DNA of 44,463 nucleotides, from contig JACPWH010000018.1 in NCBI GenBank assembly GCA_016197185.1, positions 1 to 44,463 of the forward strand. The letters run 5' to 3'. Every line of letters starts with the position of its first letter. The first letter of the stretch is position 1. A program made the translations under genes and the position numbers. The notes under the pieces are model-generated. The model had not been told where the DNA came from. It saw only the letters and a program-made list of their open reading frames with translations, and ran no database searches. The DNA is from Ignavibacteriota bacterium. Its GTDB lineage: Bacteria; Bacteroidota; Ignavibacteria; Kapaibacteriales; UBA961. This document shows positions 3,403-32,797 of the stretch, piece by piece.

Positions 3403-3663
3403 TTATCCACAATATTGTCCACAAATTAACATTTTTACGTGGAAAGGGTTTAATTTACCGTGAACACAAAATGCAGAACGTGAATAAAAATATTTCTTTC
3501 CACACAATGGTTGAAAACTTAAAACTTATTAACAATTCTTTCCACAGTATCAACAAGATAAATATTTATCTTAACATACTATAATTTTTAGGTTTATTCA
3601 TTCTTTTCCACAATGTTATCCACATTTCCACACTCTGTATTTACTCTTACATTAAGAAAATTT
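3403..3663. other. Probable chromosomal replication origin (oriC), DnaA-box cluster
   Basis: Perfect TTATCCACA at 3403-3411 and 3616-3624; near-matches TTGTCCACA 3415, CTTTCCACA 3496 and 3538, TTATTAACA 3526, TTTTCCACA 3604, ATTTCCACA 3624, reverse-strand copies near 3438 and 3479; AT-rich gap between convergent genes. Confidence 0.85.
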
Positions 3664-4386
3664 TTAAATAATTGAAGATAATGAAGAATGAGAAGAGAGC
3701 ATCACAGGTTTAAAGGGCAAATGTGAATCACAAAAAAGGAGAACCTCTCCATCGTGAATTTCGACGGATATATTTGAATCAACTGCACAATTTCTTGCTC
3801 CTTCACGTACTCCCAGTTCTAAAAGCTCATTTCTAAGATTCCATTGTAAACCGGATGTTGTCAGAATGGCTTTGGGTTGTGGAATAAGGGAAATAGTTTC
3901 TCCTATCTGTGCTGAAAATGAAATCGATTCTCTTAGGGGAATTGCATACCGACCATTTTCATACAAACAAATGGAAAGTATTTGTGAATGACGCATAAGT
4001 ACACTCCAATTATTCAAGGAATGCTCAGTTAATCCTCCGTGAAATCCACAAACTAAAATAGAGCTATATCCTTGTTTCTTGCAGAAAACCAAACACTTCT
4101 CAAAATCATTAGATTCTTGGTCAGGAAAATGGAGAATAGTTGAATCAGGAAAATCAGATGCATCTCCGTGTTGGTGAAAGGAATCAAGGTCGCCAATGAT
4201 GAACGTTGGTGAAACATTCATTTGTTGAAGTTTGTGAGCAGCTCCATCTGCTGCAATTACAGGTGAATTTTTAAAAAAATCAAAAAAATCTTTTAGTAAA
4301 GGTAAATTACCGTCAAGGCATAACAATACATCAAAATTATTATTCGAACTATTATGTAAATCAGTATGTTGATGAAATCTATCCAT
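3664..4386 (-). CDS. thiN: Thiamine pyrophosphokinase
   Basis: IAADGAA, IIGDLDS, DQESNDFEK, ISLIP, GLQWNL motifs. Confidence 0.92.
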   Translation of the reverse strand: MDRFHQHTDLHNSSNNNFDVLLCLDGNLPLLKDFFDFFKNSPVIAADGAAHKLQQMNVSPTFIIGDLDSFHQHGDASDFPDSTILHFPDQESNDFEKCLVFCKKQGYSSILVCGFHGGLTEHSLNNWSVLMRHSQILSICLYENGRYAIPLRESISFSAQIGETISLIPQPKAILTTSGLQWNLRNELLELGVREGARNCAVDSNISVEIHDGEVLLFCDSHLPFKPVMLSSHSSLSSII

Positions 4387-4560
4387 TGTCGTTAATTATA
4401 CATTTTAGACTCTTTACAATCAATAAAACCCGGGTTTCTTCTGTTTGTTTGAAAACTCGAATTTCAAAGGAAGCTAAAGTTTTGTTAAATTTGTAGTTCC
4501 GCAAAAATACAGAATTAAATTGTGAATTGTTTTTTACTCTTATTACTATCATAAACTGAA

Positions 4561-10520: not shown

Positions 10521-10595
10521 GGGATCGTAGCTCAGCTTGGTTAGAGCGCCTGCCTGTCACGCAGGAGGTCGCGAGTTCGAGTCTCGTCGGTCCCG
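10521..10595 (+). tRNA. tRNA-Asp(GTC)
   Basis: GGGATCG/CGGTCCC acceptor stem, CCTGC-CTGTCAC-GCAGG anticodon arm, G discriminator. Confidence 0.97.
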
Positions 10596-10600
10596 CAATT

Positions 10601-14963: not shown

Positions 14964-17267
14964 TTAGACGAGTACCGGTTCAATCTTTTTTTTTTCAAAT
15001 GCCTCATCCGCACAAATAGCCGCCATACTTACGATATCCTGCACATCCGCATCACGTTCCAAAATATGAATCGGCTTGTTCATCCCGATAAGAATAGGTC
15101 CTACCGCTTCTGCTTCACCTAAACGAATCAGCAATTTATAAGCAATATTAGCAGCATTCAAATCAGGAAAAATAAGAACATTAGCATCGCCTTGAATCGA
15201 ATTGAACGGAAACTGTTCACGCGCTTTGTCAGCCCATACTGCCGTATCCGCTTGCATTTCTCCGTCAATAATAAGATTTGGTCGTTTTAATTTTACAAGC
15301 TCCATTGCTTCCCTCATTTTCAATACACTCGGGTCATGCGACATTCCGAAATCGCTGAACGATAACATTGCGACACGAGGTGTAATTTTAAAACGTTCAG
15401 CTGCCTCTGCAGTAATCATTGCTATGTCAGCGAGTTGTTCGGCTGTAGGGTTCGGTGTGACTGTAGTATCCGCAAAAAAGAGTGTATCACCGCGCTTTGT
15501 AATTACAACATACATCCCGGCAACACGCGAGAATCGCTTATCTGTCCCGATAATCTCGAGTGCCGGACGAATTGTTTCATCATACCGAAGATTCAAACCG
15601 GAGAGAAGACCATCGGCATCCCCAGCCTCAACCATCAACGCCCCGAAATAATTGCGACGCATGACAAGTTTACGAGCTTCGCCGAGGGTCATTCCGCGCC
15701 GTTGGCGTTTATTAGTAAGAATATTGGCATATTCTTCGCTTTTATCCGAGTAATAAATGTCAATTGTTTCAAATTTTGAAAGGTCAATGCCAATTGAGTC
15801 CGCAACACTTTTCATTCGAGCTTGTCCCCCGAGAAGAATAGGATTTGCAATACCGTCCTCCAAAATAATTTCTGCTGCTCTGAGTGCCTTCGGCTCTTCT
15901 CCTTCTGTTAAAATAATCCTTTTCTTTACAGCCCTCCTTTGGACAGCAGTCGTAATATTTACTTTGAAACGTTTTGCATTCCCTTGTTGAGATTGTAAGT
16001 GGGTTTTATATTCTTCTATGTTAAAATCGAGTTTTCTTGCTACTCCGGATTCAATGGCTGCTTTGGCAACCGCCGGAGGAACAGTCAACAGAACACGCGG
16101 GTCTAATGCTTTAGGGATAATGTACCCCCTGCCGAAACTGGTTTCCTCACCACCATAAGCTCGTGCTACCGATTCAGGCACTTCTTGTTTGGCGAGTGAT
16201 GCCAAAGAGTATGCTGCAGCAAGTTTCATTTCGTCATTGATTGCTTTTGCCCTTACATCAAGTGCTCCTCTAAAAATATATGGAAATCCCAATACATTAT
16301 TTACCTGATTAGGGTAGTCGCTTCTGCCTGTTGCTACAATAATATCATTACGAACTACAATAGCATCAGTATAGGATATTTCGGGGTCGGGGTTGGCAAG
16401 TGCAAAGACAATTGGATTTGGCGGCATTGAGGCGACCATTTCTTTGGTAACAAGTCCGCCCGCACTTAAACCCAAAAACACATCTGCTTTGTGCATCATC
16501 TCGGCAAGAGTAGCCGGAGCATCACCGTTAGCAAAAAACAGTTTTTGTTCTGACATATCCTCAGTGCGACCTTTGTAAACCAGCCCTTTCCTATCACACA
16601 GGAACATATTTTCCCGTTTTACACCAAGTTTTATATAGAACAAACTACATGCAATAGCAGAAGCACCGGCACCGCTCACGACCACAGTAATATCAGCCAG
16701 TTTTTTGCCCTGTACCTCGCACGCATTCAAGAGTGCTGCACCGCTAATGATGGCAGTCCCGTGCTGGTCATCGTGAAATACGGGAATTTGCATCCTGCGT
16801 TGTAGCTCTTTTTCTATATAGAAACATTCGGGTGCTTTAATATCTTCCAAGTTTATGCCGCCAAAGGTCGGCTCAAGATTGGCAACAGCGTTGATAAACT
16901 CTTCTGCATCCAGGGTTTTCACTTCAATATCGAAAACATCTATATCGGCAAACTTTTTGAAGAGAACACCTTTTCCCTCCATCACAGGTTTACTTGCTGA
17001 TGCTCCTATGTTGCCCAAGCCGAGAACTGCAGTTCCATTGGAAATAACGCCAACAAGGTTTCCTTTTGCAGTATATTCATAGACTAATTCTTCATTTTCT
17101 GCAATGTCACGACATGGTTCTGCAACCCCAGGAGAGTAAGCAAGTGACAGTTCATATTGTGTATCACAAGGTTTTGATGGGATAACTTCAATCTTTCCTT
17201 TTCGTCCTGAAGAGTGATACTTAAGTGCTTCCTCACGGTTAATTTTCTTTTTGTACATTTCGGACAT
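14964..17267 (-). CDS. maeB: NADP-dependent malic enzyme with phosphotransacetylase-like C-terminal domain
   Basis: [53 protein letters not shown]. Confidence 0.97.
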
Positions 17268-17583
17268 CTGGGTTCCTATCTATAGAAGGTTTCAAAAACA
17301 GTTAGTACTTTCACCTTGTTTTATTACAAAATTAAGATAATTTGAATGAAGATGACCGTGATGTCATATTTTACACATAAAATGACTAAAAAAAGATTTC
17401 AAAAAAAGCAGGTTTTTATGAATGAATTTGTATTTTACCCAATCAAAGAGTGATGAAATAGTAGTTTTTGGATACTTCATACATATTCATAAAAAAATCT
17501 TTGTGTAGTAGGAAAAGAAATACGTAAGTTAACTGAAAGCACAAAATGTGTTCTTTCACTTTTTATATTCTATAGAATCAATT

Positions 17584-17957
17584 ATGACAACATATCCTTA
17601 CCCTGTAGAAGAAGGTCGTCGTGATATTGTTATGAGTATTATTTTCACAGTAATTACATGTGGAATTTATGGTCTTTATTGGCAGTATAAACAATGGAAT
17701 GTATCAATGCTTGGCTTAGAAGGGGAGAATACAATTTTTGGGCGGTTTTCTTTATTTCGATTATAACCTGTGGTATCTATTATATTTATACCAAGTACAA
17801 GATGGCAGAATCAATAAATGCGATTCAAAGTGCAAACGGTTTTAATGTAAACTCCAGTCTCCCGTTGATCACTCTTTTACTGTCAATTTTCGGTTTGAGT
17901 ATAGTAGCGGATGCGATTCAGCAGAGTGAAATGAATGATTGGTATGTTGGGGCTTAA
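17584..17957 (+). pseudogene. DUF4234-family membrane protein with a 1-nt frameshift at about 17694
   Basis: Frame 1 IFTVITCGIYGLYWQYKQ joins frame 2 MECINAW..IITCGIY..IQQSEMN if one A is added at CAA/ATG. Confidence 0.8.
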
Positions 17958-18034
17958 ATCGATAGCTTTGTTGAGGCAGAGAGTGCTTATTTGTAAGTAA
18001 GTTTTTATCTGATTACGTCTAAGAATGGATATAT

Positions 18035-18066
18035 AAAAAAGGTAAGTCAATTGACTTACCTTTTTT
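18035..18066. terminator. Bidirectional terminator (perfect 32-bp palindrome)
   Basis: AAAAAAGGTAAGTCAA/TTGACTTACCTTTTTT between convergent genes. Confidence 0.85.
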
Positions 18067-18084
18067 ATAGCATACAAACTCTAT

Positions 18085-18465
18085 TTATTCATTCAAATCA
18101 TATTCTTTTTTAGAATACTCGAATGCCTCGATGCCAATATCTTCCAGAAGAGGATTATTGCTTCTTGAGAATTGATAAGGATAACCCCAATAGATAAGTT
18201 TATCATTTTCAAAAGCATAATAATATACCTCTTTAAAAACGGCACCTCTAATTGTGGTCATATAAACTTCATATTTATTTTTGTTCTTTGCACTTAACTT
18301 TGGTAGAGAGACAACCTTGTCATAATCTACATCTTCCGTTTTAAATGCCTGAAGTGTTGTGCCCTTCGATAGCCGTAAATTACTTTCAGTAATAAATGTT
18401 TGACAAGAAGCCAATCCTATAAACGAAAGTAGAATTATACTTGATTTAATAAATTTACCGTACAT
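18085..18465 (-). CDS. Small lipoprotein, paralog 3 (BamE/BLIP-like)
   Basis: Lipobox LASC; YYAFENDKLIYWG motif. Confidence 0.8.
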   Translation of the reverse strand: MYGKFIKSSIILLSFIGLASCQTFITESNLRLSKGTTLQAFKTEDVDYDKVVSLPKLSAKNKNKYEVYMTTIRGAVFKEVYYYAFENDKLIYWGYPYQFSRSNNPLLEDIGIEAFEYSKKEYDLNE

Positions 18466-18910
18466 ATTCTATGCCTTTCTTTTGTAAATAGTTTTTATAA
18501 CCGGCTTCCAAAGCCAAACCAAATTGACTTCCTTTATTGGAAGGGTCATTTTTGAATTCATATAAATAACCCCAGTTAAAGAGCTTGCTGTTTTTAGTAA
18601 TCAGAAAATAAAAATCTCTGAAATAAGTAGTTTTCTCAGAGCGACCGCCATTATATTTCTGCTCTTGCGGAGTAGTGAATTCTTTATGAAAATAATTCGT
18701 AACCGGCAATACTTGACACTGATATTTTTGATTATCGAATTCAAATTCAAATATAGGAATCATATCAGAGTCCACTGTCAATTCTTTCGAAAAATCCATT
18801 CCTTTTTTTAGTCGTGCAAAATCGTTTGCTCCGATAAATTTATTACCGCATGACGACATAAAGACCGTAGTAATTACCAAAAATAGATTAATACATAATT
18901 TGTTTTTCAT
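18455..18910 (-). CDS. Small lipoprotein, paralog 2 (BamE/BLIP-like)
   Basis: Lipobox MSSC; FARLKKGMD; FLITKNSKLFNWG motif. Confidence 0.8.
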   Translation of the reverse strand: MKNKLCINLFLVITTVFMSSCGNKFIGANDFARLKKGMDFSKELTVDSDMIPIFEFEFDNQKYQCQVLPVTNYFHKEFTTPQEQKYNGGRSEKTTYFRDFYFLITKNSKLFNWGYLYEFKNDPSNKGSQFGLALEAGYKNYLQKKGIEYVR

Positions 18911-18920
18911 AATTTTTCCC

Positions 18921-19322
18921 TTAATGTTTAATCCAAGTTTCAGAAATTAAAGCACCTAACCCGTTAGCAACATCATCATCCGCTCTTTTGAAGTCATCCA
19001 AATTTCCCCAAAAGTATAATTTGTCATTTTTAAAAGCAAATGCGAATAAATCATATTTGTCAGTGTACCAAAAGTCGTACCCTATCGCATAGGTCTGCAC
19101 CCAACGTTTGTAGATAAGTACCTTAAACTTATCGTTACTTCCTTGCATTGCAAGTTCTTTCTCCAAAACAGGATCTCTGTCCAAGTACTCTACTACTGAT
19201 TTGTAGTCTTCATTCTTGTTGAGCTTTCCTGCGGTATTATACCCTATAAGCGGGTGGCTACACGACCCGAGTAAAAGAAAAAGCAACGCACCTGCCAGCA
19301 AAAAGCTGTAATGTTTCTTCAA
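18921..19322 (-). CDS. Small lipoprotein, paralog 1 (BamE/BLIP-like)
   Basis: TTG start preceded by GAGGTGA; lipobox LGSC; FAFKNDKLYFWG motif. Confidence 0.8.
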   Translation of the reverse strand: MKKHYSFLLAGALLFLLLGSCSHPLIGYNTAGKLNKNEDYKSVVEYLDRDPVLEKELAMQGSNDKFKVLIYKRWVQTYAIGYDFWYTDKYDLFAFAFKNDKLYFWGNLDDFKRADDDVANGLGALISETWIKH

Positions 19323-19469
19323 AGTGTCACCTCATATTGATTGAAAATAAATTGTTTCCGTCTTAAAACAAATATACCACTGCTAAACTTAATAAAAAAC
19401 TACTCTTTTCTCCATGAAGCAATAATTTATTATATTGAACAAATTTTAGTAACTATTTCTTATCCCTTT

Positions 19470-20438
19470 ATGCGTGTATTCTTTACTTTTCTATTGTTTT
19501 TTGCTTTATTCTCGAATAATTTTTTTGCTGCAACAACTACTTCAATTCCCGATTCTTCGGATAATAAGACATATCAGAGAACTACTTTTGTAGAAGTTCA
19601 AGAAGCAAAACCAGGTAATCTATCTCCCTGGAAAGATACCCAAGGGTACCTCAGAAGAAGTATTGTAGGATTTGATTATGTAAAAAGAAGTGGAAACTTA
19701 GAATCTAAACTTTTTAAGTTCTATAATGGTGAACCCCTTCCTAAAGAAACAGTCAATGGTTTTGAAATAAGTATTGAAGGATTCTTTGCCAACAAATTTA
19801 TTGACAGCACCAAAGAGCATAACCTTATGTACTTCGATAATTTCAAAGCAGGGTATAAATTGGCATATCATAAATATTCCCTTGCCGATACTATTGCCAC
19901 TCAATTTGAACCCTATACGGTCGGTTTTATTGATATGGGGATAAATGTGGATTATACCAGAGGCTACGGATGGACATTCGAGGACAAAGCCAGTTTAAGT
20001 GTATATAAGACACTCGGGCTTACTGTCGGAATATTAGCTTTGACAGATGAAAGTACCAAAGATCCGGTAGCACCTTTTGGAGATTACAATGAAACAGGTT
20101 TTCGTTACCAAATTAATAAAACAATAGGGGCCGTTACAGGAATAAGGGAAAATCAATCCTATAACGGTTTCACTTTCGATAAATGGGCATTAAGTAAAAT
20201 AGTGGAGGTTTCGGGAAATGCTGTGCTGGATAAACTTCTAACTTCATATTTTGTCAATAAAAAAGATCAATGGACTCCTATCTATCAATTAGTCTATCAA
20301 TCGGCGTGGAGTTATCTTTTTTACGCGCTACGTCAAAAAAACACTTACTTCCCTTTTTCAAATACCGAAGGTGAATCAATGGTACAAGATACAAGATTTT
20401 TCATCGGGTTAAAATTTTCTTTTACAAATTATTTGTAA
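19470..20438 (+). CDS. Hypothetical exported protein, probable outer-membrane beta-barrel
   Basis: Signal peptide MRVFFTFLLFFALFS; aromatic/Gly-rich alternating strands; ends RFFIGLKFSFTNYL. Confidence 0.6.
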   Translation: MRVFFTFLLFFALFSNNFFAATTTSIPDSSDNKTYQRTTFVEVQEAKPGNLSPWKDTQGYLRRSIVGFDYVKRSGNLESKLFKFYNGEPLPKETVNGFEISIEGFFANKFIDSTKEHNLMYFDNFKAGYKLAYHKYSLADTIATQFEPYTVGFIDMGINVDYTRGYGWTFEDKASLSVYKTLGLTVGILALTDESTKDPVAPFGDYNETGFRYQINKTIGAVTGIRENQSYNGFTFDKWALSKIVEVSGNAVLDKLLTSYFVNKKDQWTPIYQLVYQSAWSYLFYALRQKNTYFPFSNTEGESMVQDTRFFIGLKFSFTNYL

Positions 20439-20521
20439 ATACCCAAACTAACAAGTTGTATTCAAGGCTGTATTCAAGTCACAAATGCAACTTTTTAATT
20501 TGACAAATTTATATTAAAAAA

Positions 20522-22654
20522 TTACCTGCACTCAATCAAGCAACTCTTCTCTTTCCCGCCGCCTGCCCAGGTCTGTTTCACTACAGTCCCGCTACCCTGC
20601 ACTTTCACCTTTACGTTTGCAGCATGGAGTACAGCCAATGCTCGACGCACCGACATTCCCCGAACATCAGGTCTGAGCGCATCGGCATGTGCTTTTTCAA
20701 TCGAATCGCGTTTGATTGCAGGAGTAGGAACTCTATATTCAGCAATTACGTCAGTTCCGCGCAATACTTTTTTACCAGGCAGTGGTGTTTGCTGGGCAAT
20801 TATCCCCTGTCCGTGATTATTAAGGCGTAATCCGTTTTGGTGTAAAACGGTCATGGCGTTTTCAACGGTGATACCTCGTACATCCGGCACGGAAACTGAA
20901 TCGGGCAGAGTGGCAGTTTTTGTTTCGGTGTCGGAAATACCCTCCATGTGGGTAGCAGAAATCCATTGTTGTGCAATTCTACGGAAAATCGGTGCAGCTG
21001 TTTTACCTCCATAAATATCAGTTTGTGGACGGTCGAGCATGATCATCATAGCAACTTTGGGCTTATCTGCCGGAAAATACCCTACGAACGAAGCGGTGTA
21101 AGCCTGTTTTGAGTATTTGCCATCCTCAAGTTGTTGTGCAGTTCCCGTCTTTCCGGCTATTCTCATCCCTTGCACCCGTGCTTCATTTCCTGTTCCACGT
21201 TCAACTACTCCGCATAGTAATTCTGTAAGCGTTGTGGCAGTTTGCTGAGAAACCACCTGGCGGATTTTTTGCGGAGCATAACTTTCGGTTTCCCTTCCGT
21301 CCTCGCCAAATACCTTTTTGATAAGATAGGGTTTCATCATCACACCGCCATTGGCAACTGCAGCATAAGCATTTACTATTTGCAATGCAGTTGCAGCAAG
21401 TTCATAACCATACGCCATAAAAAATTTTGTAGCACCGTCGAACTCTCGTGGCTTCTTCATTCTGCCGGAGGACTCTCCGGGTACATCAATTCCGAGTGTG
21501 ATCCCAAAACCAAAATCACGGGCATACTTGTAGAATTTATCATCCGGAATTTTCATGGATTGTGTGGCAAAAACCACATTACTCGATTGCTCAAGCCCCT
21601 GAGCAAATGTTATTCGTCCTAAAGGGTGGGTATCTTTAATTTCATAGCCGTCAGAAAGTTTCCATATACCACCATGAGCATCTACTGTATCGGCAGGTGC
21701 AACCGTTTTTTCTTCAAGTGCTGCTGCAGCAGTCACGAGTTTGAATGTTGAGCCGGGTTCATACATATCGGTGATCGCCCGTATTTTCATTGTCTCTTGG
21801 GATGCCTGTTGAGGGCGGTTGGGATTGAAACTCGGGGAGGAGGCAACAGCAAGAATTTCACCTGTTGATGGATCAAGTGCAATGATTGTACCCGATACTG
21901 CCCGTGCATCGGCAATTCCCCGTTCGAGTTCGTATTCTGCTATTCGCTGTAGTTCCATATCAAGTGTAAGCTGTACGGATTTTCCGTTGGAAGCGGCTGC
22001 TGAAGGTAAATCCACGGATGGACGAAGATTTCCACGTCCGTCCCGTTGCATCACCATATATCCCGACGAACCACGCAAGACGGAATCGAGAGCAAGTTCC
22101 ACCCCGCTTAATCCCTGATTGTCAACATTCGTGCAGCCGACTATTTGTGCTGCAGCATTACCGAAATAATAATTCCGTCGTGGCTCTGTTACGCGAATAA
22201 GTCCTATATCTTGCAAAGTGTCAAGAATAGAAGAGCGGTCAAGATTACTTCGTGCAACCCACAGAAATGATTTGTCGGAAGATCGTATTTTTTGTTCCCA
22301 AATAGATGCGGAATCTCCGGTTAATTGTTGCAAAGCTGATGCAATGGTATGGGTATGCTGTACCATACTAGGATCTACAGCAAATGATGCACTGTTGATT
22401 GTTGAGGCAATTACATGTCCATTGCGGTCATAGATTGACCCTCGTTGAGGTTTGAGTTCAATGCGAGATTCGTATTGTTTACGGGCAAGAGCACGATATT
22501 TTCCTGAATTGATAACTTGAACTATGAACAAACGAACCAATATTCCGATGAAACAGAGCGAAAGAACAACCAGCAGAAGACCTGTCTTCCAATTTTGATT
22601 GGATTCCTTTTCTTTGTCCGATTCCGTTTGAGATTTTGTTTGAGTAGATTGCAT
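20522..22654 (-). CDS. ftsI: Class B penicillin-binding protein (FtsI/PBP3-like) with two C-terminal PASTA domains
   Basis: N-terminal TM, RGSIYDRNG, GLSGVE, EPGSTFK (SxxK), SSN, KTGTAQ, two PDVRG PASTA repeats. Confidence 0.9.
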   Translation of the reverse strand: MQSTQTKSQTESDKEKESNQNWKTGLLLVVLSLCFIGILVRLFIVQVINSGKYRALARKQYESRIELKPQRGSIYDRNGHVIASTINSASFAVDPSMVQHTHTIASALQQLTGDSASIWEQKIRSSDKSFLWVARSNLDRSSILDTLQDIGLIRVTEPRRNYYFGNAAAQIVGCTNVDNQGLSGVELALDSVLRGSSGYMVMQRDGRGNLRPSVDLPSAAASNGKSVQLTLDMELQRIAEYELERGIADARAVSGTIIALDPSTGEILAVASSPSFNPNRPQQASQETMKIRAITDMYEPGSTFKLVTAAAALEEKTVAPADTVDAHGGIWKLSDGYEIKDTHPLGRITFAQGLEQSSNVVFATQSMKIPDDKFYKYARDFGFGITLGIDVPGESSGRMKKPREFDGATKFFMAYGYELAATALQIVNAYAAVANGGVMMKPYLIKKVFGEDGRETESYAPQKIRQVVSQQTATTLTELLCGVVERGTGNEARVQGMRIAGKTGTAQQLEDGKYSKQAYTASFVGYFPADKPKVAMMIMLDRPQTDIYGGKTAAPIFRRIAQQWISATHMEGISDTETKTATLPDSVSVPDVRGITVENAMTVLHQNGLRLNNHGQGIIAQQTPLPGKKVLRGTDVIAEYRVPTPAIKRDSIEKAHADALRPDVRGMSVRRALAVLHAANVKVKVQGSGTVVKQTWAGGGKEKSCLIECR

Positions 22655-22680
22655 TACAATTATAGTATCTGAATTTGTCG

Positions 22681-23646
22681 TTATTTGTTCATTTCAACAG
22701 AGACTAAGTCGGCTGTTATTGGTGAGTCTTCGCTTCTAAGTTTTCCTTTTTGTCTGAAATAGAGCATGGCTGTCGGACGCCATTCGATTCTCATTCGTTT
22801 CATAATTTCTTCGGGAGTTGCTCCGAGTTCCGCCATGAGGATACCTGCTGTATGCCGGAGAGAAAAAGGTGTAAGTTTCAAATCCCTCCCGCGCTTTACA
22901 TTACTGTTTTTGAGACGAACGCTGATTGTCTCTCGAATACCACGAATACTCATTGATTTACCTTGTGCTCTATTGCTGTAACTTAGAAATAAAGGAGAAT
23001 CTTCAGGGATATCCTTACCTCGATTCGTCAGATATTTTTCAAGGGCATCATACGTAGCTTTTGGAACTCTAACCGGTTCATCTTTAATACTTTTGCCTTT
23101 TCCTTGGACATTGAGAATCCATAGACTCTCAACCTTTTTGAGATCGCCTACTTCTGCATGGGTAAGTTCAAGTTCGGCGCAGGCGCATCCCAGCATTGTA
23201 AGGATTAGGGCTTTATCCCTCAGACCTGTGGCAGTATCTTCTTCGATACTGTTTAAAAGCAATTCAATATCGTTAAGGGTAAGAAATGTTCTTGCATGAG
23301 CAATAGGTCGCCTTCCACCTTGAATACCCTTTGCCGGATTTTTTTCTATAACACCTGATTCTACAAGATATTGGCACAGTCTGCGAAGTGAAGTCATATA
23401 AGCAGCCACAGAAACATCCTGCATCTTTTTGGTGGTATGCAGGTGCTTCTTATAGCGTTCTACATCTTTTACTCTAAATTGAAATTGCCGATCTGCCGAA
23501 AAAAAAGTAACAAACTCCCTTAGGGTTCGCTGATATGTTCCTTGTGTCTCTTTGCTCTTATCTGAATATGAAGCGATGAATTTCTCCACATAGTCAGTCA
23601 ATGTGGATAGTTTCATTCTGGCAGGCTTGAAATAATCTTCAATCAT
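22681..23646 (-). CDS. Xer-like tyrosine-recombinase-fold protein with degenerate active site
   Basis: SAM-like core-binding domain (SLRRLCQYL..IEKNPA), LRDKALI, QGKGK, LTPFSLRHT, TAMLY; several catalytic positions substituted. Confidence 0.88.
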   Translation of the reverse strand: MIEDYFKPARMKLSTLTDYVEKFIASYSDKSKETQGTYQRTLREFVTFFSADRQFQFRVKDVERYKKHLHTTKKMQDVSVAAYMTSLRRLCQYLVESGVIEKNPAKGIQGGRRPIAHARTFLTLNDIELLLNSIEEDTATGLRDKALILTMLGCACAELELTHAEVGDLKKVESLWILNVQGKGKSIKDEPVRVPKATYDALEKYLTNRGKDIPEDSPLFLSYSNRAQGKSMSIRGIRETISVRLKNSNVKRGRDLKLTPFSLRHTAGILMAELGATPEEIMKRMRIEWRPTAMLYFRQKGKLRSEDSPITADLVSVEMNK

Positions 23647-23836
23647 AAAGATATACAGGAAAGCGTTGAACGAAAGATGTATTCCGGTTTTTGTCCAAAA
23701 TTACCGCATTTTTCAATATAGAACGAGAAGGAATTTTTGTATCTTTGAAAAAAACTCGTGCTTTCTTGGGGTTTACGAAACAGAAACACTGTTTTGTAAA
23801 TGGCTATCATATCATTATTCATTTATTATCGTTTTC

Positions 23837-25048
23837 ATGAAAAACTATATCTATCTGTTGGCAGCATCTATCCTTCTTTTATCATCATGCACAAAAAACT
23901 CCTTATCGGACGGAAGTAAAACAATCAAATTTTGGCATTTTTGGAGTGAGCCGTCACAAAAACAGGCATTGAAAGACATCGTAGCTGAATTCGAGAAGCA
24001 AGAGCATTGCAAGGTTGAACTTACGGATTTAAGTTGGAATGATGGCAAAACAAAACTTCTCGCTGCTTTTAATTCAAATACCGCACCCGATATTATAGAG
24101 CTTGGTTCGGATTGGGTGGCACAATTTTCAAGCGCAGGTGTGCTGCAAGAATTACCGAAAGATTCTATTTTTTCAAAATTTGCTGAGTTTTCTCAGCCAC
24201 CTGCAATGTGGAAAGGAAAAGTATATGCGTATCCTTGGAATGTAGATACTCGTGTCATGTTTTGCAATAATGAACTGTTAAAGAAAGCGGGAATAACTTC
24301 AATTCCTACTAATACTATCGAGCTAATCACTGCTTGTGAAAAACTGCAATCAATAGAGGGGATATACCCTTTCGGTGCTAATGGGGACGACCGTCATCGC
24401 CTTTACAAAAAAATACTTCCGTTCTTTTGGAGTAACGGAGGTGATGTGATGGACGCAAACGGAAAACTAACCTTAAATTCAGCAGAGAATATCCAAGGAT
24501 TGAACACCTATATTACATTATCTCGAATGGGTCTGATAGAAACACAGCGACAGTTGGATGTATCGTTTGTTCAGGGCAAGGTGGGATTTTGGTTTTCAGG
24601 CGGGTGGCTGATGACAAAAATTGCTGCGGGAAATCCATCGTTGGATTATAGCGTGGCATTAGTTCCCGGAATGAAATCTTCAGGAGTATCATTTGCCGGA
24701 GGTGAATATATTGCTTTATCGGCTAAAGGAACAAATCAAGAATTAGCTGCAAAATTTGCAAAATATATAACTGATGGTAAAACCACTTTGGAATTCTGTA
24801 AGAGGGTACCTGAGGTCGGCTTCCCTGCCGACAAACGATATTTCTCTGACAATTATTTCAAGCAGGTTAAGAACCGCAGTATTTTTGCAGAACAATTAAC
24901 AAAAGCAAGAATGACACCTGTCCACCCAAAATGGTTAGAGATTGAAGTACTTTTGGAAAATGCAGTTGTTGAGGCATTGTATGGAAGAAAATCAGCTGCG
25001 AATGCTCTGAATGATGCACAGGCAGAGGCAGTTGGGCGGTATCAGTAA
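23837..25048 (+). CDS. Carbohydrate ABC transporter extracellular solute-binding lipoprotein
   Basis: Lipobox LSSC; TIKFWHFW, APDIIELG, GKVYAYPW, SFAGGE; no permease genes adjacent. Confidence 0.9.
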   Translation: MKNYIYLLAASILLLSSCTKNSLSDGSKTIKFWHFWSEPSQKQALKDIVAEFEKQEHCKVELTDLSWNDGKTKLLAAFNSNTAPDIIELGSDWVAQFSSAGVLQELPKDSIFSKFAEFSQPPAMWKGKVYAYPWNVDTRVMFCNNELLKKAGITSIPTNTIELITACEKLQSIEGIYPFGANGDDRHRLYKKILPFFWSNGGDVMDANGKLTLNSAENIQGLNTYITLSRMGLIETQRQLDVSFVQGKVGFWFSGGWLMTKIAAGNPSLDYSVALVPGMKSSGVSFAGGEYIALSAKGTNQELAAKFAKYITDGKTTLEFCKRVPEVGFPADKRYFSDNYFKQVKNRSIFAEQLTKARMTPVHPKWLEIEVLLENAVVEALYGRKSAANALNDAQAEAVGRYQ

Positions 25049-25126
25049 AAGAGTCTAAACAAATAGAAGATATGTGAATACGAGGGATTCTCATATTTAT
25101 ATAAAATTTAACAATGAAATTTCATA

Positions 25127-25143
25127 CGACCCTGACAGGGTCG
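25127..25143. repeat. REP-like palindrome
   Basis: CGACCCT-GAC-AGGGTCG in an AT-rich intergenic region with no T-tract. Confidence 0.5.
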
Positions 25144-25213
25144 AAAGTTTAAATATAACTAAGATTGTTATAACTATTTAATTCCTATGGTGATTAATCA
25201 GATTATATTATAG

Positions 25214-25241
25214 TCATTCTCATTCTCATTCTCATTCTCAT
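25214..25241. repeat. Hexanucleotide microsatellite (TCATTC)x4.7
   Basis: Read directly from the sequence. Confidence 0.95.
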
Positions 25242-25299
25242 ACCAATAAACTGTCAGCAAATTAGCTCTTAGAATTAATAGGAATTTTAATAACACTCA

Positions 25300-26274
25300 A
25301 TGACAACCGAATTATTAGATGCTCTAAACTCACCCGACTCTGCAATCATCCGTGCTGCAGAATTGTTACGTTCCGGTGAAGTAGTAGGTTTCCCTACCGA
25401 AACCGTCTATGGTCTTGGAGCATGTATATTTAATGAAACAGCTGTAAGGAAAATTTACGAAGCTAAGGGTCGCCCACAGGATAATCCATTGATTGCTCAC
25501 ATTGCTTCAATTGAAGATGCCAAAAGAATTGCCGTGAATATTCCTGATGAATTTTACAGGTTGGCTGATGCTTTTTTTCCGGGAGCATTGACAGTAATTT
25601 TACGTAAGCGAAAGCAAGTTCCTTCAATTGTTTCAGCAGGATTAGATACTATCGCCGTTCGGATGCCTGCACATGAGATAGCTTTAAGAATTATAGCGGA
25701 GGCGGGTGAGCCGCTTGTTGCGCCATCTGCAAACCGTTCAGGGAAACCGAGTCCAACTTCTGCCCAACATGTATTTGATGATCTGAACGGTAGAATTGCT
25801 GCAATCGTTGATGGTGGCAAGTGTAGAGTTGGGATTGAATCGACAATTATAGATATTCTAGGTGATATTCCGGTGATAGTTCGCCCGGGTTCGATTACCG
25901 GTGAAAATATCGAGCAAATATTGGGTAAAAAAGTGATTATACATTCAGCCGGAGAATCGCCGGTACCGATTGCACCCGGGATGAAGTATAGGCATTACGC
26001 CCCACAAGCAATTGTTAAACTAAAAAAATCATGGGAGGAAATTTCAGAGGAAATAGATAAGAATCCCAATTATAAACGGATGATATTAACGACAGAGGAA
26101 GCACCTGCCAAATTAAAAGATATTGTATTTTCATTGAGCACAGAGACAATTTATGCAGAATTTCGGAGAGCTGATGCTGAAAGTTTCCAAGAAATCCTTA
26201 TTTTGTGTAGTGATACTGTGCAAACCAACACCGCTCTGATGAATCGAATAGCAAAGGCAGCATCGGGAACGTAG
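25300..26274 (+). CDS. sua5: L-threonylcarbamoyladenylate synthase with SUA5 domain
   Basis: FPTETVYGL, KGRPQDNPLI, APSANRSG, GIESTI, APGMKYRHYAP. Confidence 0.96.
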   Translation: MTTELLDALNSPDSAIIRAAELLRSGEVVGFPTETVYGLGACIFNETAVRKIYEAKGRPQDNPLIAHIASIEDAKRIAVNIPDEFYRLADAFFPGALTVILRKRKQVPSIVSAGLDTIAVRMPAHEIALRIIAEAGEPLVAPSANRSGKPSPTSAQHVFDDLNGRIAAIVDGGKCRVGIESTIIDILGDIPVIVRPGSITGENIEQILGKKVIIHSAGESPVPIAPGMKYRHYAPQAIVKLKKSWEEISEEIDKNPNYKRMILTTEEAPAKLKDIVFSLSTETIYAEFRRADAESFQEILILCSDTVQTNTALMNRIAKAASGT

Positions 26275-26318
26275 TCTATTTGCAATTGTTAAGTCGATAT
26301 ATTCCATAACTCGTTCCT

Positions 26319-26585
26319 ATGATTCAAGAAACACTTATAGTTCGTAATCGTGCCGGTCTTCATACTCGCCCTGCAGCGATGCTTGTGAAATTAGCTGCAA
26401 AATTCAAATCGGATATTTATCTTAACCGTGACGGATATGATATAAATGCTAAAAGTATTATCGGGGTTATGACACTTGCTGCCGAGCAAGGCAGTGAACT
26501 TTTGTTAACGGTTGAAGGTGCAGATGAGCAGGACGCAATTGTAGAGCTCAAATCACTTTTTGAAAACGGATTCGGTGAATTATAA
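26319..26585 (+). CDS. ptsH: HPr phosphocarrier protein
   Basis: GLHTRPA (His15), NAKSIIGV (Ser46), EGADE. Confidence 0.96.
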   Translation: MIQETLIVRNRAGLHTRPAAMLVKLAAKFKSDIYLNRDGYDINAKSIIGVMTLAAEQGSELLLTVEGADEQDAIVELKSLFENGFGEL

Positions 26586-26649
26586 ATAAATGGCGGGACT
26601 AAAATAATCGTCATAATTAATATTCATAATTTGGCAAGTATTAGAACAA

Positions 26650-26698
26650 CGACTAAGCTTAGTATGACATAACTTGATTACCATGGAGAGCTTAGTCG
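26650..26698. repeat. Inverted repeat, degenerate REP-like pair
   Basis: CGACTAAGCT ... AGCTTAGTCG 10-bp arms with a 29-nt spacer. Confidence 0.55.
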
Positions 26699-26827
26699 AA
26701 GCATTTAAGTAGTTGGCAATCTTCAGACAAATATTTTTTTATGTAATGTTTCGGTTGTTTTAGTACAATCACTTATCCGTCCCCTGAAAACACAGTACTA
26801 TATTTATTTACATTTAGAAAGAACGTT

Positions 26828-27337
26828 ATGTTAAAGGGAAAAGTATTAGAAATGCTCAATGAGCAAATGAACCGTGAGTTTTTTTCATGGTATCTCTACC
26901 TATCGGCAGCTACCTATTTTAACACGCTCGATTTGGAGGGGTTTGAACAATGGACTCGACGACAAGCAACTGAAGAAACAACTCATGCGATGAAAATATA
27001 TAATTATATGCTTGAGCGAAATGGTGAGGTGGTTCTCAGCAAAATCCCTGCCCCTACTCAAAAATGGAATTCACCAATAGAAGTCATTGAAGCGGTATAT
27101 CAACATGAGTGTGAACTTACAGGGCGGATTAACGACATCGTTCGCCTAACTCGCGAAGTGAGTGATTATACTACTGAAGTGTTCCTCCATTGGTTCATTA
27201 CCGAGCAACGAGAAGAAGAGGCAATGGCAAGCCGTGTATTACAAAAATTGAAAATGATAGGTAATGATATGGGTGGGTTATTAATGCTTGATGCTCAAGT
27301 TGCAACTGTTGGTCAAGCACCCGAAAGTGCTACCTAA
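26828..27337 (+). CDS. ftnA: Non-heme ferritin
   Basis: LNEQMNRE..YL, EETTHAMK, HE, FLHWFITEQREEE ferroxidase residues. Confidence 0.95.
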   Translation: MLKGKVLEMLNEQMNREFFSWYLYLSAATYFNTLDLEGFEQWTRRQATEETTHAMKIYNYMLERNGEVVLSKIPAPTQKWNSPIEVIEAVYQHECELTGRINDIVRLTREVSDYTTEVFLHWFITEQREEEAMASRVLQKLKMIGNDMGGLLMLDAQVATVGQAPESAT

Positions 27338-27352
27338 TTTATAGGAAAAACA

Positions 27353-27910
27353 ATGAAAATCTATACAAAAACAGGAGATGATGGGACTACCGGACTTTTC
27401 GGAGGACAGCGTGTTGAAAAATATCATCTTCGCATTGCAGCTTACGGAACGGTAGATGAACTTAATTCTGTTATTGGAGTTGCCCTTACTCATAAGCCAA
27501 CCCATCGGCTGAAACATCCGCTTGAGCATTTGTCGTCCTTATTATTTACCGTTGGAAGTGATTTGGCAACTCCGCTCGATCCTCCTGCTAAATATCATAT
27601 TCCCCGTATTGAATTGGAGCATATTGAATGGCTTGAACATTTGATTGATGAATTCGAGGAAGATTTAACTCCATTGAGAAATTTCATCTTACCCGGAGGG
27701 TGTCCGCTATCGGCGCATCTTCATCTTGCACGAACGGTATGCAGACGTGCTGAACGAGCAGCTGTAGAGCTTTCCCATTCAGAAAATATCGGTGAATTTG
27801 CTATAAAGTTTTTGAATAGGCTTTCCGATTTTCTTTTTGTAACGGCGAGAATGGCTAATTTTCTTGAGGGAGTGGATGATGTGCCGTGGGTGCCGAATGA
27901 GAGGAAATGA
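27353..27910 (+). CDS. PduO-type cob(I)alamin adenosyltransferase
   Basis: KIYTKTGDDGTT, AYGTVDELNS, FILPGG, RTVCRRAER, LNRLSDFLF. Confidence 0.95.
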   Translation: MKIYTKTGDDGTTGLFGGQRVEKYHLRIAAYGTVDELNSVIGVALTHKPTHRLKHPLEHLSSLLFTVGSDLATPLDPPAKYHIPRIELEHIEWLEHLIDEFEEDLTPLRNFILPGGCPLSAHLHLARTVCRRAERAAVELSHSENIGEFAIKFLNRLSDFLFVTARMANFLEGVDDVPWVPNERK

Positions 27911-28029
27911 TGAGTTTATATTGATGTTATTTGCATGTATTTATAATTCAAAAAAAATTCTTTTTTGGATGTAAATAAATTCGTAAGTTGTTTGTAGAAA
28001 AATATAGCGTTTTTTCTTTACTCTGTTCT

Positions 28030-28158
28030 TTGTTGAAACTGATAATTTCTGAAAGAAACTTGAAGCAAAGTTCTCACTCTGCGTTAGCAAGGAGAGTGTT
28101 TCTTTCGTAAGTTATCAGTATCTCGACCAAGGGCGTTTTGAAATTGCGCCCTTCTTTT
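28030..28158 (+). ncRNA. Candidate structured RNA / leader: long hairpin followed by an intrinsic terminator
   Basis: ACTGATAA(28038)/TTATCAGT(28112) and GAAAGAAAC(28051)/GTTTCTTTC(28098) arms; then AAGGGCG..CGCCCTT plus T tract. Confidence 0.5.
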
Positions 28159-28251
28159 ATGCCTAAAATTTTCAAATCCTAAAAATGAGTAATAAATGAA
28201 TGTGTACTTAATTCTTTAATTTACTATACTTCCATCTTTATTTATGTTTTT

Positions 28252-28683
28252 ATGAAAAAATACATCGTTGTAAATATGTTGTTTCTATTCTTAGGAACAA
28301 TTTCATTGAGAGCAAATGTCGATCCCGCAAATAGAAAAAATTGTAATCCGCCATGCTGTGCAAATATTGTAACTGGATACGGAAATGTTTGTTCATCTCA
28401 AGCTGTCCGCTGTGTAATTGCATGCCGGATAATATGTAGTTCTAATTCAGAATATAATAATCAAAATTCCAGCGCAAATGCCTGTAGTGTACAAATGATC
28501 TCCTCAAATGCATGTAAGGTTAGAATAGGTGGTGCATTTTGCGATGAGGTATGCGACCCTTGTTCAGCTTCTGATGTAGGTGTAGATATTTGTGGTGCAG
28601 GTTCTTGCACACAAAGTCTTTTTAATTATAATAGTTACGGTGATTATTCTTGTTATTTGCAATCATATATTTTTTCACGGTAG
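28252..28683 (+). CDS. Secreted cysteine-rich protein (15 Cys)
   Basis: Signal peptide ending LRA; 15 Cys in about 122 mature residues. Confidence 0.75.
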   Translation: MKKYIVVNMLFLFLGTISLRANVDPANRKNCNPPCCANIVTGYGNVCSSQAVRCVIACRIICSSNSEYNNQNSSANACSVQMISSNACKVRIGGAFCDEVCDPCSASDVGVDICGAGSCTQSLFNYNSYGDYSCYLQSYIFSR

Positions 28684-28710
28684 TTGTTAACTTAATAATA
28701 GGGGTATATT

Positions 28711-30033
28711 ATGAAAGAATTAATAATGTTTACCGTTACTTTCTTAGTGTCGGTAACCTCATTACTAGCTCAGTGGGGTACTCCGGTTTTTCGCATAAAA
28801 CCTGATGATGTAAATTATTTACGATACTTTTACTACCGAAATAATTTCGATTCTGCTTTTGTTACCTATAGCTTTGGCGAAGTTAAGGTTTCCTCAGGAA
28901 GTGGGTGGAACCGGTTATATCTATCATCTGCTCTAAAAATGAATGAACAAAAACAGGGAGAACAGGGTCAAGGTGAAAATACTCAGCTTCTGCAATATAG
29001 TCGTTCTGAACATTTTATTATGCCGGACAGCGGACAGATTAGTTATTACCGTGAGTTGTCAGTATCTCCATCACCGTGTGGAATATTCATTGACGATGGC
29101 GGGTCGGGGGGGGCAGGAGATGGTTTGGGGCATGCTTGGTTGGTGGGACAAAATAAAATAACCGACAAGACAGAATTTGTTGTCCAGCTTATCAGGGCTT
29201 CCGACAGTGTAGTGTTGGCTGTTCTTGACAGTGTAGGAGTTAAGCAGAATCCTTTATCTAACTATGCACCGTATTACGGCACAACCCCCAATCATTTCAA
29301 AACAATCCGTGTTTTGCCTCAAGGGTATGGAAATACTGAGGCTTACCTTCAGGTCTCTCCACGAAGGTATGGCCCTACTCCTTATGGGATAGATATGAAA
29401 ATGTACTCCTCATGGATCAGCAACTCTACTATTTTCGAGCGTGACGACACAACCCAAGTATGGGGATTAACCCCTGCTCAAAACAAAATTATAGACCAAC
29501 AGTATTTTGCACAAATTTTATCCTATTATGACAGTGTGAAAACGGCAACCGGACATTTACCGTACGAGGGTGCAGAATTGCTTTTCAGTTCGGATTCATT
29601 AGGTCAAATTTTTGATAACAGATATTACGATCAACACACAGAACCAAACGGTAGAGTTTACTATACAGAAAAAAGTGGCTTTTCCAAAAACGCATCGAAT
29701 GAGCCAGAGCGTTCATCTGTTAAGAATGGTATTGTTTGCGCTAATAATATTTGTAAATTGAGAGATGCACAGATTGAAAGTGTCATGCCTAATCCCAGTT
29801 CAGGAAATACTCAAATATCAATTACGGCATATAAGGAAATGTCAAATGTAGCAATTGAAATATATACAATAGGAGGTCAAAAAATAGGACGTATATGGTC
29901 AGGATTGCTTCTAAAAGGAACGAACACGATAAGTGTAAATATGTCAGACTATTCTAATGGTACTTATGGTGTTTATTGTAATAATCAGAATGGTGAGACA
30001 GTAGATTTTGATAGAATTATTATTGTGAGGTAA
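28711..30033 (+). CDS. T9SS type-A CTD cargo protein of unknown function
   Basis: Signal peptide (LLA-Q); C-terminal VMPNPSSG..IEIYTIGGQKI..G.Y.V..IIIVR sorting domain. Confidence 0.88.
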   Translation: MKELIMFTVTFLVSVTSLLAQWGTPVFRIKPDDVNYLRYFYYRNNFDSAFVTYSFGEVKVSSGSGWNRLYLSSALKMNEQKQGEQGQGENTQLLQYSRSEHFIMPDSGQISYYRELSVSPSPCGIFIDDGGSGGAGDGLGHAWLVGQNKITDKTEFVVQLIRASDSVVLAVLDSVGVKQNPLSNYAPYYGTTPNHFKTIRVLPQGYGNTEAYLQVSPRRYGPTPYGIDMKMYSSWISNSTIFERDDTTQVWGLTPAQNKIIDQQYFAQILSYYDSVKTATGHLPYEGAELLFSSDSLGQIFDNRYYDQHTEPNGRVYYTEKSGFSKNASNEPERSSVKNGIVCANNICKLRDAQIESVMPNPSSGNTQISITAYKEMSNVAIEIYTIGGQKIGRIWSGLLLKGTNTISVNMSDYSNGTYGVYCNNQNGETVDFDRIIIVR

Positions 30034-32711: not shown

Positions 32712-32724
32712 GAAAAAAGGTAAG

Positions 32725-32797
32725 AGCCAATTGCCGGATTCGAACCGGCGGCCTGCTCATTACGAATGAGCTGCTCTACCAGCTGAGCTAAATTGGC
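32725..32797 (-). tRNA. tRNA-Thr(CGT)
   Basis: Reverse complement GCCAATT/AATTGGC acceptor stem, GCTCA-TTCGTAA-TGAGC anticodon arm, GTTCGAAT. Confidence 0.96.

Follow-up and report, generated by a model that had tools for sequence, protein, structure and literature searches.

A gene for a tyrosine recombinase homologue with an eroded catalytic pocket lies on the minus strand at 22681-23646 of the DNA analyzed here, a 44,463-nucleotide contig (JACPWH010000018.1) of an Ignavibacteriota bacterium whose genome derives from a groundwater metagenome (assembly GCA_016197185.1), referred to below as the window. By fold, the 321-residue product is a member of the tyrosine recombinase superfamily, but it fails the catalytic-residue definition of that superfamily: where R-K-H-R-[H/W]-Y is expected, the protein reads A-K-F-R-I-Y. 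Comparison with its relatives supports the idea of a pseudo-recombinase, with a predicted loss of DNA cleavage, and we lean with moderate confidence toward the view that the gene product acts as a noncleaving DNA-binding clamp. Tyrosine recombinases are usually taken as markers of recombination or mobile DNA, and databases annotate the clade to which the protein belongs as "XerC/XerD/integrase." In every orthologue examined (the best 120 of 223 relatives), this clade is without the first catalytic arginine (Arg-I), a residue whose loss cripples Cre. If the protein is a DNA-binding pseudoenzyme, it would exemplify, in bacteria, the domestication of a recombinase to serve as a chromosomal factor, and automatic XerC/XerD calls in these phyla would overcount recombinases; if it is still active, the clade would define a new active-site layout.

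The gene and the parts of its product to which the argument refers are the following, with ORF standing for open reading frame and AF2 for AlphaFold2.

22681..23646, minus strand: Xer-derived protein with an eroded catalytic pocket (ORF, Pfam PF00589 plus SAM-like, AF2, Foldseek)
23332..23604, minus strand: N-terminal core-binding (SAM-like) domain, residues 15-105 (Pfam Phage_int_SAM_5, 2e-09; four helices in the AF2 model)
23290..23319, minus strand: basic linker GGRRPxxHxR, residues 110-119 (conservation in the 22-sequence alignment A1)
22753..23286, minus strand: catalytic-type domain, residues 121-298 (Pfam Phage_integrase 121-285; XerC/XerD alignment)
23176..23178, minus strand: Ala157 at the Arg-I position, Ser in most orthologues (own-genome Xer alignment, codon check)
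23098..23100, minus strand: Lys183, the beta-hairpin lysine, kept (own-genome Xer alignment, codon check)
22855..22866, minus strand: F261-S-L-R264, His-II replaced by Phe, Arg-II kept (own-genome Xer alignment, codon check)
22759..22797, minus strand: R284-M-R286-I287-E-W289-R-P-T-A-M-L-Y296, His-III replaced by Ile, Tyr kept (own-genome Xer alignment)
within 22759..22797, minus strand: family-specific Arg284 and Trp289 (orthologue conservation)

Fold, catalytic positions and conservation

The ORF is intact and begins with ATG, and its translation holds GCACAELEL, TPFSLRHT, KRMRIEWRPTAMLY and QGKGKS. Catalytic columns were set by alignment to the XerD (L001:1147-2064) and XerC-like (L002:1459-2388) proteins of the same genome. 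The Arg-I position is occupied by Ala157, His-II by Phe261 and His-III by Ile287, and the beta-hairpin lysine (Lys183), the second arginine (Arg-II, Arg264) and the nucleophile (Tyr296) are retained. The alignment bears out a first-pass annotation of this DNA, which had described an intact 321-residue Xer-like ORF with Arg replaced by Ala, one His by Phe and a second His lost, and with Lys, Arg and Tyr kept. The public protein collection holds a 311-residue form that starts at Met11 (P0001), the extra start region being 23614-23646 (minus strand) of the window; the longer form is favored because the orthologues keep the N-terminal sequence MIEDxFxPV.

Profile searches place the protein in the superfamily and outside its named members. 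Pfam Phage_integrase (PF00589) matches residues 121-285 at 3.9e-12, with 46.7 bits against a cut-off of 27.1, PF13102 scores 38.1 bits against 22.3, and N-terminal SAM-like domains are matched. The NCBIfam equivalog cut-offs are reached neither for XerD (TIGR02225, 88.6 bits vs. 329.6) nor for XerC (TIGR02224, 86.6 bits vs. 335.15), and the ESM Atlas matches are to generic "tyrosine recombinase/integrase" clusters only, with no structure of the protein in that resource. An AF2 model, built from a 22-sequence alignment, has a mean predicted local distance difference test score (pLDDT) of 86.1. Its best Foldseek matches are XerA, Cre, an integron integrase, XerD and XerH, at E values from 1.7e-10 to 8e-08, with a probability of 1.00 for XerA, Cre, XerD and XerH; the model has the two-domain fold of the superfamily. 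In the core-binding domain, T34, Y38, R64, Y65, R88 and R89 are invariant in alignment A1. In the linker, G110, R113 and R119 are invariant and P114 and H117 at least 90% conserved, and pLDDT is low at residues 113-119, fitting a flexible linker.

The substitutions are shared by the whole core family. A word-indexed search returned 223 relatives, and the best 120 of these, the window protein and 119 orthologues down to ~48% identity, were examined. None has Arg at the Arg-I column, which holds Ser in 109, Ala in 10 and Gly in 1; the His-II column is Phe in 119 and Tyr in 1, and the His-III column is Ile in 112 and Leu in 8. Arg284 is found in 118 of the 120, and Glu158 and Pro291 are almost invariant too. 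The ratio of nonsynonymous to synonymous substitution rates (dN/dS) is 0.052 against L005 and 0.060 against L006, the two closest relatives among the loci described below, with dS values of 1.6-1.8 that are near saturation; the adjoining penicillin-binding protein (PBP) gene gives 0.026-0.060 in the same comparison. Because Arg-I is absent from all 120 sequences, Phe and Ile/Leu are fixed and dN/dS is ~0.05, the recombinase homologue is, on this comparative evidence, old and under strong purifying selection and not a case of recent decay. These data agree with the first-pass proposal of a selected, catalytically eroded homologue rather than a decaying pseudogene, and orthologues with intact catalytic residues, which that annotation had named as a sign of recent decay, do not occur among the best 120 of 223.

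Matching of family-specific peptides to 185,579 species genomes gave 254 stretches, 241 of them confirmed by tblastn as encoding a relative, and 80 loci were kept. All 80 come from metagenome-assembled genomes of uncultured lineages, labeled mostly Kapaibacterium, Ignavibacteria, Kryptonium, Chlorobiota or Bacteroidota, with a few other phylum labels. The clade spans Kapabacteria, Ignavibacteria, Kryptonia and Rhodothermales, the Rhodothermales member being a more distant degenerate one. In the class of the window, a strong match (E ≤ 1e-50) was obtained in 25 of the 121 genomes sampled, always as exactly one copy, and most taxonomic families are uniform in having or lacking the gene (12/12, 4/4, 0/12 and 0/10, for example). 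Of 31 close relatives, counting the genome itself, 22 gave a match at E ≤ 1e-30. The distribution indicates that the gene is vertically inherited, single-copy, chromosomal and dispensable in some lineages.

The genome has four PF00589 genes: the 321-residue protein, a XerD that passes its equivalog cut-off (341.5 bits vs. 329.6), a XerC-like protein (311.0 bits vs. 335.15) and a 422-residue integrase with an extended N-terminal region and the canonical catalytic-residue pattern. The count of canonical genes that the first-pass annotation had called for is thus one XerD and one XerC-like gene elsewhere in the genome, and this pair is apparently intact. Searched for repeats, the interval 17000-29000 yielded short imperfect two-copy matches only and no flanking repeats, invertible segment or cargo, and the nearest tRNA genes (10521-10596 and 32724-32797) are more than 9 kb from the gene. 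The gene is not on a mobile element, and the earlier statement that no att sites or cargo lie nearby stands.

The degenerate clade, its tree and the competing readings

An exhaustive profile-free search of 50%-identity cluster representatives returned 6230 relatives at E ≤ 0.001, 61 of them at E ≤ 1e-30. The best 150 of the 6230 yielded 132 near-full-length aligned sequences, 122 of which have all six catalytic columns filled. Among these 122 representative clusters, 78 read RKHRHY, 40 are without Arg-I and 4 keep Arg-I and are otherwise changed. The 40 clusters without Arg-I have Ser (21), Thr (10) or another residue (9) at that position, and in 9 of them the Tyr is lost as well. In a FastTree of 72 rows, which comprised all noncanonical rows of at least 285 residues with filled columns plus every third canonical row and which carries Shimodaira–Hasegawa-like support only, 41 rows without Arg-I and 3 with Arg-I form one clade (support 99) that nests among canonical RKHRHY relatives. 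The state of the Arg-I position requires a minimum of two changes on this tree, and the residue appears to have been lost essentially once in the degenerate clade. Because two basal members of the clade, RKFRHY and RKNRHY, still carry Arg-I, the erosion looks stepwise, with His-II going first, Arg-I next and His-III last.

Glu158 is present in 4 of the 78 canonical relatives and Arg284 in none, marking both as gains of the clade, and in the Tyr-less members Glu158 persists in 8 of 9 and Arg284 in 7 of 9. Since both persist where the Tyr is gone, a function common to the whole clade would need no nucleophile. One Tyr-less example (G007:C67), from the window's own order, reads S-K-H-S-I-I and is the sole such copy in its genome. 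In a genus of the window's taxonomic family (g68), the protein is only 34-43% identical to that of the window, with XerC at 55-56%, and Lys183 is replaced or gapped in all 4 copies.

These data suggest a mechanism for a noncleaving clamp. The protein has kept the whole two-domain C-clamp fold, the basic interdomain linker and many DNA-contact positions, with three of the six catalytic residues gone (Arg-I to Ser/Ala, His-II to Phe and His-III to Ile/Leu). Most likely it no longer exchanges DNA strands; it would clamp onto a particular DNA site, using the two domains together with the basic linker, in a regulatory or architectural role, and in the core family Lys183, Arg264 and Tyr296 would hold a backbone phosphate. 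The apparently intact XerC/XerD pair alongside could handle chromosome dimers. In Cre, the Arg-I substitution R173A is described as a "devastating loss of activity" (PMC2943603, in extract).

Several observations weigh against this reading. Across the best 120 of 223 relatives, Tyr296 and His265 are present in all 120, Lys183 and Arg264 in 119 each, and Glu160, the equivalent of Cre Glu176, is invariant; beside the pocket, Arg286 and Trp289 are near-invariant, each in 119. The remnant pocket of this core family, the window protein included, is by this measure still constrained. In the wider clade, Lys183, Arg264 and Arg286 occur in 3/9, 1/9 and 2/9 of the members that lost the Tyr, vs. 21/31, 28/31 and 18/31 of those that kept it. 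That these residues tend to go with the Tyr suggests that the pocket still does something where it is retained. As excerpted, the Cre study reports that activity above 5% depends strictly on the Tyr and the Lys only and that the His289 and Trp315 positions accept several substitutions (PMC2943603), and in IntDOT, the CTnDOT integrase, an arginine from another part of the chain takes over the function of the missing Arg-I (PMC8138268, in extract). Finally, 9 of the 31 close relatives, among them the single-contig genomes G137 and G071, have no match to the protein at E ≤ 1e-30.

The main rival explanation, a rewired and still-active enzyme that nicks or recombines DNA at some chromosomal site, is possible, if unlikely in our estimation. 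Its pocket would consist of Tyr296, Lys183 and Arg264 together with Arg286 (or Arg284) and Trp289, and it would account for the near-invariance of these residues in the core family and for their tendency to vanish together in derived branches; IntDOT would be the precedent for a relocated Arg-I, and the tolerance of Cre at His289 and Trp315 also speaks for it. Arg284 and Arg286, invariant or nearly so, adjoin the His-III position. However, Arg286 is already found in 73 of the 78 canonical relatives that have Arg-I, and for this reason does not appear to have been gained as a replacement for it. Arg284 is a gain of the clade, yet its retention in Tyr-less members argues that it is not tied to catalysis. 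In addition, both His positions are hydrophobic, the DNA around the gene shows none of the flanking repeats, invertible segments or cargo for which 17000-29000 was searched, and related lineages keep the protein without its Tyr. The stronger form of this idea, that the core family has a working rewired site lacking Arg-I, His-II and His-III, and hence a previously unknown catalytic layout with a chromosomal nicking, recombination or topology task beside XerC/XerD, we consider improbable. The noncleaving clamp remains the reading that we prefer.

Comparison with known systems sets the protein apart from each of them. It shares with XerC/XerD (TIGR02224, TIGR02225) the two-domain architecture and a length of about 300 residues, and like them it is of the "simple" type of tyrosine recombinase, chromosomal, single-copy and devoid of an arm-binding domain. 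In contrast to XerC/XerD, it has Arg-I, His-II and His-III replaced, scores far under the equivalog cut-offs, is without the HPR/HPK C-terminal end and is present in addition to the XerC/XerD pair. Archaeal XerA (PDB 5hxy, 4a8e) is the best structural match (Foldseek E 1.7e-10, 22% identity) and the second PDB sequence match; the protein scores 72.9 bits against the XerA model (NF040815) cut-off of 220, and XerA keeps the R-K-H-R-[H/W]-Y set (PMC5357621, in extract). The nearest RKHRHY relatives, a canonical sister group with the signatures GLRTIE, TAHSLRHTA and ARHxxIxTTMIY (~100-125 bits, ~30% identity), share Arg143, Asp144, Glu160 and Arg286 with the protein, but keep the six catalytic residues and are mostly without Glu158 and wholly without Arg284 (4/78 and 0/78, as above).

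IntDOT resembles the protein in that Arg-I is absent from its usual place, with Ser found there in several integrases of its subgroup, and its host belongs to the same broad phylum, Bacteroidota; it is an active mobile-element integrase with an arm-binding domain, in which another Arg takes the Arg-I role (PMC8138268, in extract). In contrast to IntDOT, the window protein has no arm-binding domain by Pfam, is off any mobile element, has lost both His residues, and is single-copy with lineage-consistent synteny. Because there is no arm-binding domain and the gene is not on a mobile element, the protein does not appear to be of the IntDOT type. In the extracted part of the tyrosine-recombinase survey, a weakened Arg-I is given for IntCTnDOT only and a shifted Arg-I for IntDes (PMC8138268). 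A full-text literature search found no description of the clade, although the supplementary subgroup lists of PMC8138268 may already include such proteins.

The best PDB sequence match is a 400-residue P. gingivalis "RaiA" (PDB 9i5v chain 14; E 2.3e-06, query residues 18-235), which keeps Arg-I in the alignment shown and is not a close relative. Its ribosome-binding part, of which 34 residues were modeled, is placed at the tRNA-binding site occupied by HPF (PMC12123416, in extract), and its first ~280 residues align as an Xer-like recombinase. It resembles a fusion of a recombinase-like module with a hibernation factor, an Xer-like module reused in a different context in Bacteroidota.

A possible parallel is the streptococcal "XerD-like" protein (NF002685), which we take to be an Xer paralogue not used at dif; our searches did not confirm the parallel. 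The window protein has no match to NF002685 at E ≤ 0.01 (6 NCBIfam matches were obtained), and the profile has 245 positions. Given the different length and phylum, any resemblance would be convergent.

The adjoining PBP gene and the link to division

The gene is followed on the same strand by a PBP gene.

20522..22654, minus strand: class B PBP, 710 residues, with two PASTA domains (Pfam Transpeptidase 2.1e-80, PBP_dimer, PASTA x2)
22655..22680, minus strand: 26-bp spacer separating the recombinase-like gene from the PBP gene (stop TAA 22681-22683, PBP ATG 22652-22654)

The earlier observation that the ORF ends 26 bp before an ftsI-type gene is correct in these coordinates. The genome has four PF00905 transpeptidase genes, two of them class B. 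The 710-residue PBP reaches no FtsI equivalog cut-off in NCBIfam, and it is assigned as FtsI-type by elimination, because the only other class B PBP of the genome passes the MrdA model (561.8 bits vs. 455). A promoter and terminator scan found no terminator-like site in the 26-bp spacer; the scan used the sigma-70 consensus, which may not suit this phylum, and its matches were no commoner than in shuffled sequence. The corresponding spacers in L005 and L006 are 31 and 27 bp. From the 26-bp gap, the lack of a terminator and the similar gaps in the two closest relatives, the 321-residue gene and the ftsI-type gene are probably cotranscribed in this organism. A search for sequencing runs that carry this DNA listed one DNA run and two more of the same study, and no RNA run.

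The first-pass annotation had asked whether orthologues keep this linkage, and by and large they do not. A PBP gene lies within 6 kb in 2 of the 80 loci, L005 and L006, which are the closest two (85% and 83% identity), and adjoins in 3 of 22 relatives' loci (own, G131 and G126), all of the window's genus; the other three carriers in that genus have no such gene at their loci. The ftsI adjacency is, on this comparison, a recent arrangement in one species group and neither a family trait nor a guide to the function of the family, to which a tie with ftsI or division should not be extended.

Nor does the gene occupy the place of mraZ-rsmH-ftsL, as had been proposed; that description is misleading. 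The division and cell wall (dcw) cluster is dispersed in this genome, with mraZ-rsmH alone on contig C277 (18536-19963) and mraY on C107 (14336-15466). On C277, mraZ-rsmH is followed by an ORF on the opposite strand, and the 480 bp after rsmH consist of repeated short segments in all frames. Displacement of ftsI from an mraZ-rsmH-ftsL-ftsI operon was considered and rejected, as no rsmH lies within 1.5 kb upstream of ftsI in 5 relatives. In one genome, G020, a 102-residue FtsL-like ORF precedes ftsI, and tblastn of this ORF against the window's own genome gave no convincing match (best E 0.14). In G129, a genome from the same genus as the window, the match to the ftsI-type PBP comes in two overlapping parts (query residues 4-236 and 320-710), and the locus (L152/L154, G129:C2:369180-371028) has ORFs of 243 and 416 residues, which reflect either a frameshifted gene or an assembly error.

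The division link bears on a further reading, in which the protein is a noncleaving XerC/XerD partner at or near dif that modulates dimer resolution and couples chromosome state to division, the second of the two ideas in the first-pass annotation. We regard this as quite unlikely. It would fit an Xer-type paralogue coexisting with XerC and XerD, and gene order in some genomes is suggestive: on contig C121 (L002:1-2388), an FtsW-like SEDS gene (332 bits vs. a cut-off of 337.5) is preceded, at a distance of 354 bp and in the same orientation, by the xerC-like gene, so that in this genome the degenerate Xer gene precedes ftsI and xerC precedes ftsW. In G137, a single-contig genome of the same taxonomic family without the degenerate gene at E ≤ 1e-30, ftsI and xerD are convergent neighbors (L151, G137:C1:128261-133327), ftsI ending at 3573 of the locus and a canonical xerD occupying 3574-4503 on the opposite strand with zero gap. 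However, the xerC-ftsW adjacency was rejected as a conserved parallel, being found in only 2 of 30 loci, the window's own genome and the near-identical G131, and the ftsI adjacency is as restricted as described above. Moreover, XerC and XerD occur without a copy of the degenerate protein in many genomes of this class and order, and the C-terminal HPR/HPK end of the genome's own XerC and XerD is absent from it.

Other neighbors and upstream sequences

A single functional neighbor common to the family was sought in the 80 loci and rejected, synteny being lineage-specific only. The gene directly downstream is leuS in 22 loci, corA in 13 and an Amidase_3 gene in 7, with others in the rest. Several of the Amidase_3 genes overlap the upstream gene by 4 bp, and Amidase_3 occurs within three genes downstream in 13 loci. 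A 634-residue protein with a C-terminal Amidase_3 (N-acetylmuramoyl-L-alanine amidase) domain directly follows the degenerate Xer gene in L027, L030, L076-L078, L082 and L084, so that two different peptidoglycan enzymes, the PBP here and an amidase elsewhere, lie downstream of it in different lineages. Upstream, a SpoIIE-GAF phosphatase gene is directly adjacent in 9 loci. In the Ignavibacteria-type loci (L059, L063, L065, L071, L083 and neighbors), a partner-switching set lies directly upstream on the same strand, with leuS downstream; the set is made up of two copies of a SpoIIE-type phosphatase with GAF domains, one STAS protein and one HATPase_c_2 kinase, and no sigma factor gene was seen in this stretch of those loci. 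A Kapabacteria group has RecO and HtrA-like genes upstream on the opposite strand.

That the protein acts on RNA or the ribosome rather than on DNA is very improbable. The leads in that direction are weak: some neighbors are related to translation (leuS as the next gene downstream in 22 loci, tsaC as the next gene upstream in 3, and a TRAM/U5-methyltransferase gene present in 5), and there is the match to the N-terminal part of the P. gingivalis RaiA. Against it, housekeeping genes often adjoin one another, the PDB match is generic and to a protein that keeps Arg-I in the alignment shown, and both the fold and the basic residues that are conserved are of the DNA-clamp kind.

Upstream of the gene, the window has the following feature.

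23647..23836, no strand assigned: divergent intergenic region upstream of the gene, likely a promoter region shared with a solute-binding protein (SBP) gene (from sequence, by inference)

The SBP ORF is listed at 23666-25048 on the plus strand with a TTG start at 23666, and a lipoprotein-type signal, MKNYIYLLAASILLLSSC, follows ~57 codons later. The true SBP start is probably near 23836, which would leave a divergent intergenic region of ~190 bp.

An element of 8-13 nt (GCAATAAC, extended TGCAATAACGGTA) occurs in the 300 nt preceding the gene in 27 of the 80 sequences compared (the window and 79 loci), for example in the forward orientation in L050, L054, L056, L057, L047 and L037-L040 and in reverse in L064, L071, L073 and L079-L083. 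The density of the element is ~1.0 per kb in these upstream regions vs. ~0.045 per kb in the rest of the loci, and the element is not in 23647-23946 of the window. As a mark of a wider regulon, TGCAATAACGGTA was rejected: with at most 1 mismatch, five genomes contain 7, 2, 17, 1 and 6 sites, against 0, 7, 12, 0 and 5 for a reversed-pattern control; in 4 of the 5 the count does not clearly exceed chance, and in one it is 7 vs. 0. In several loci the element reads TTGC-N9-GCAA. It is flanked by sequences that resemble the -33 and -7 promoter boxes of Bacteroidota, and it may be an operator or promoter element specific to the degenerate Xer gene.

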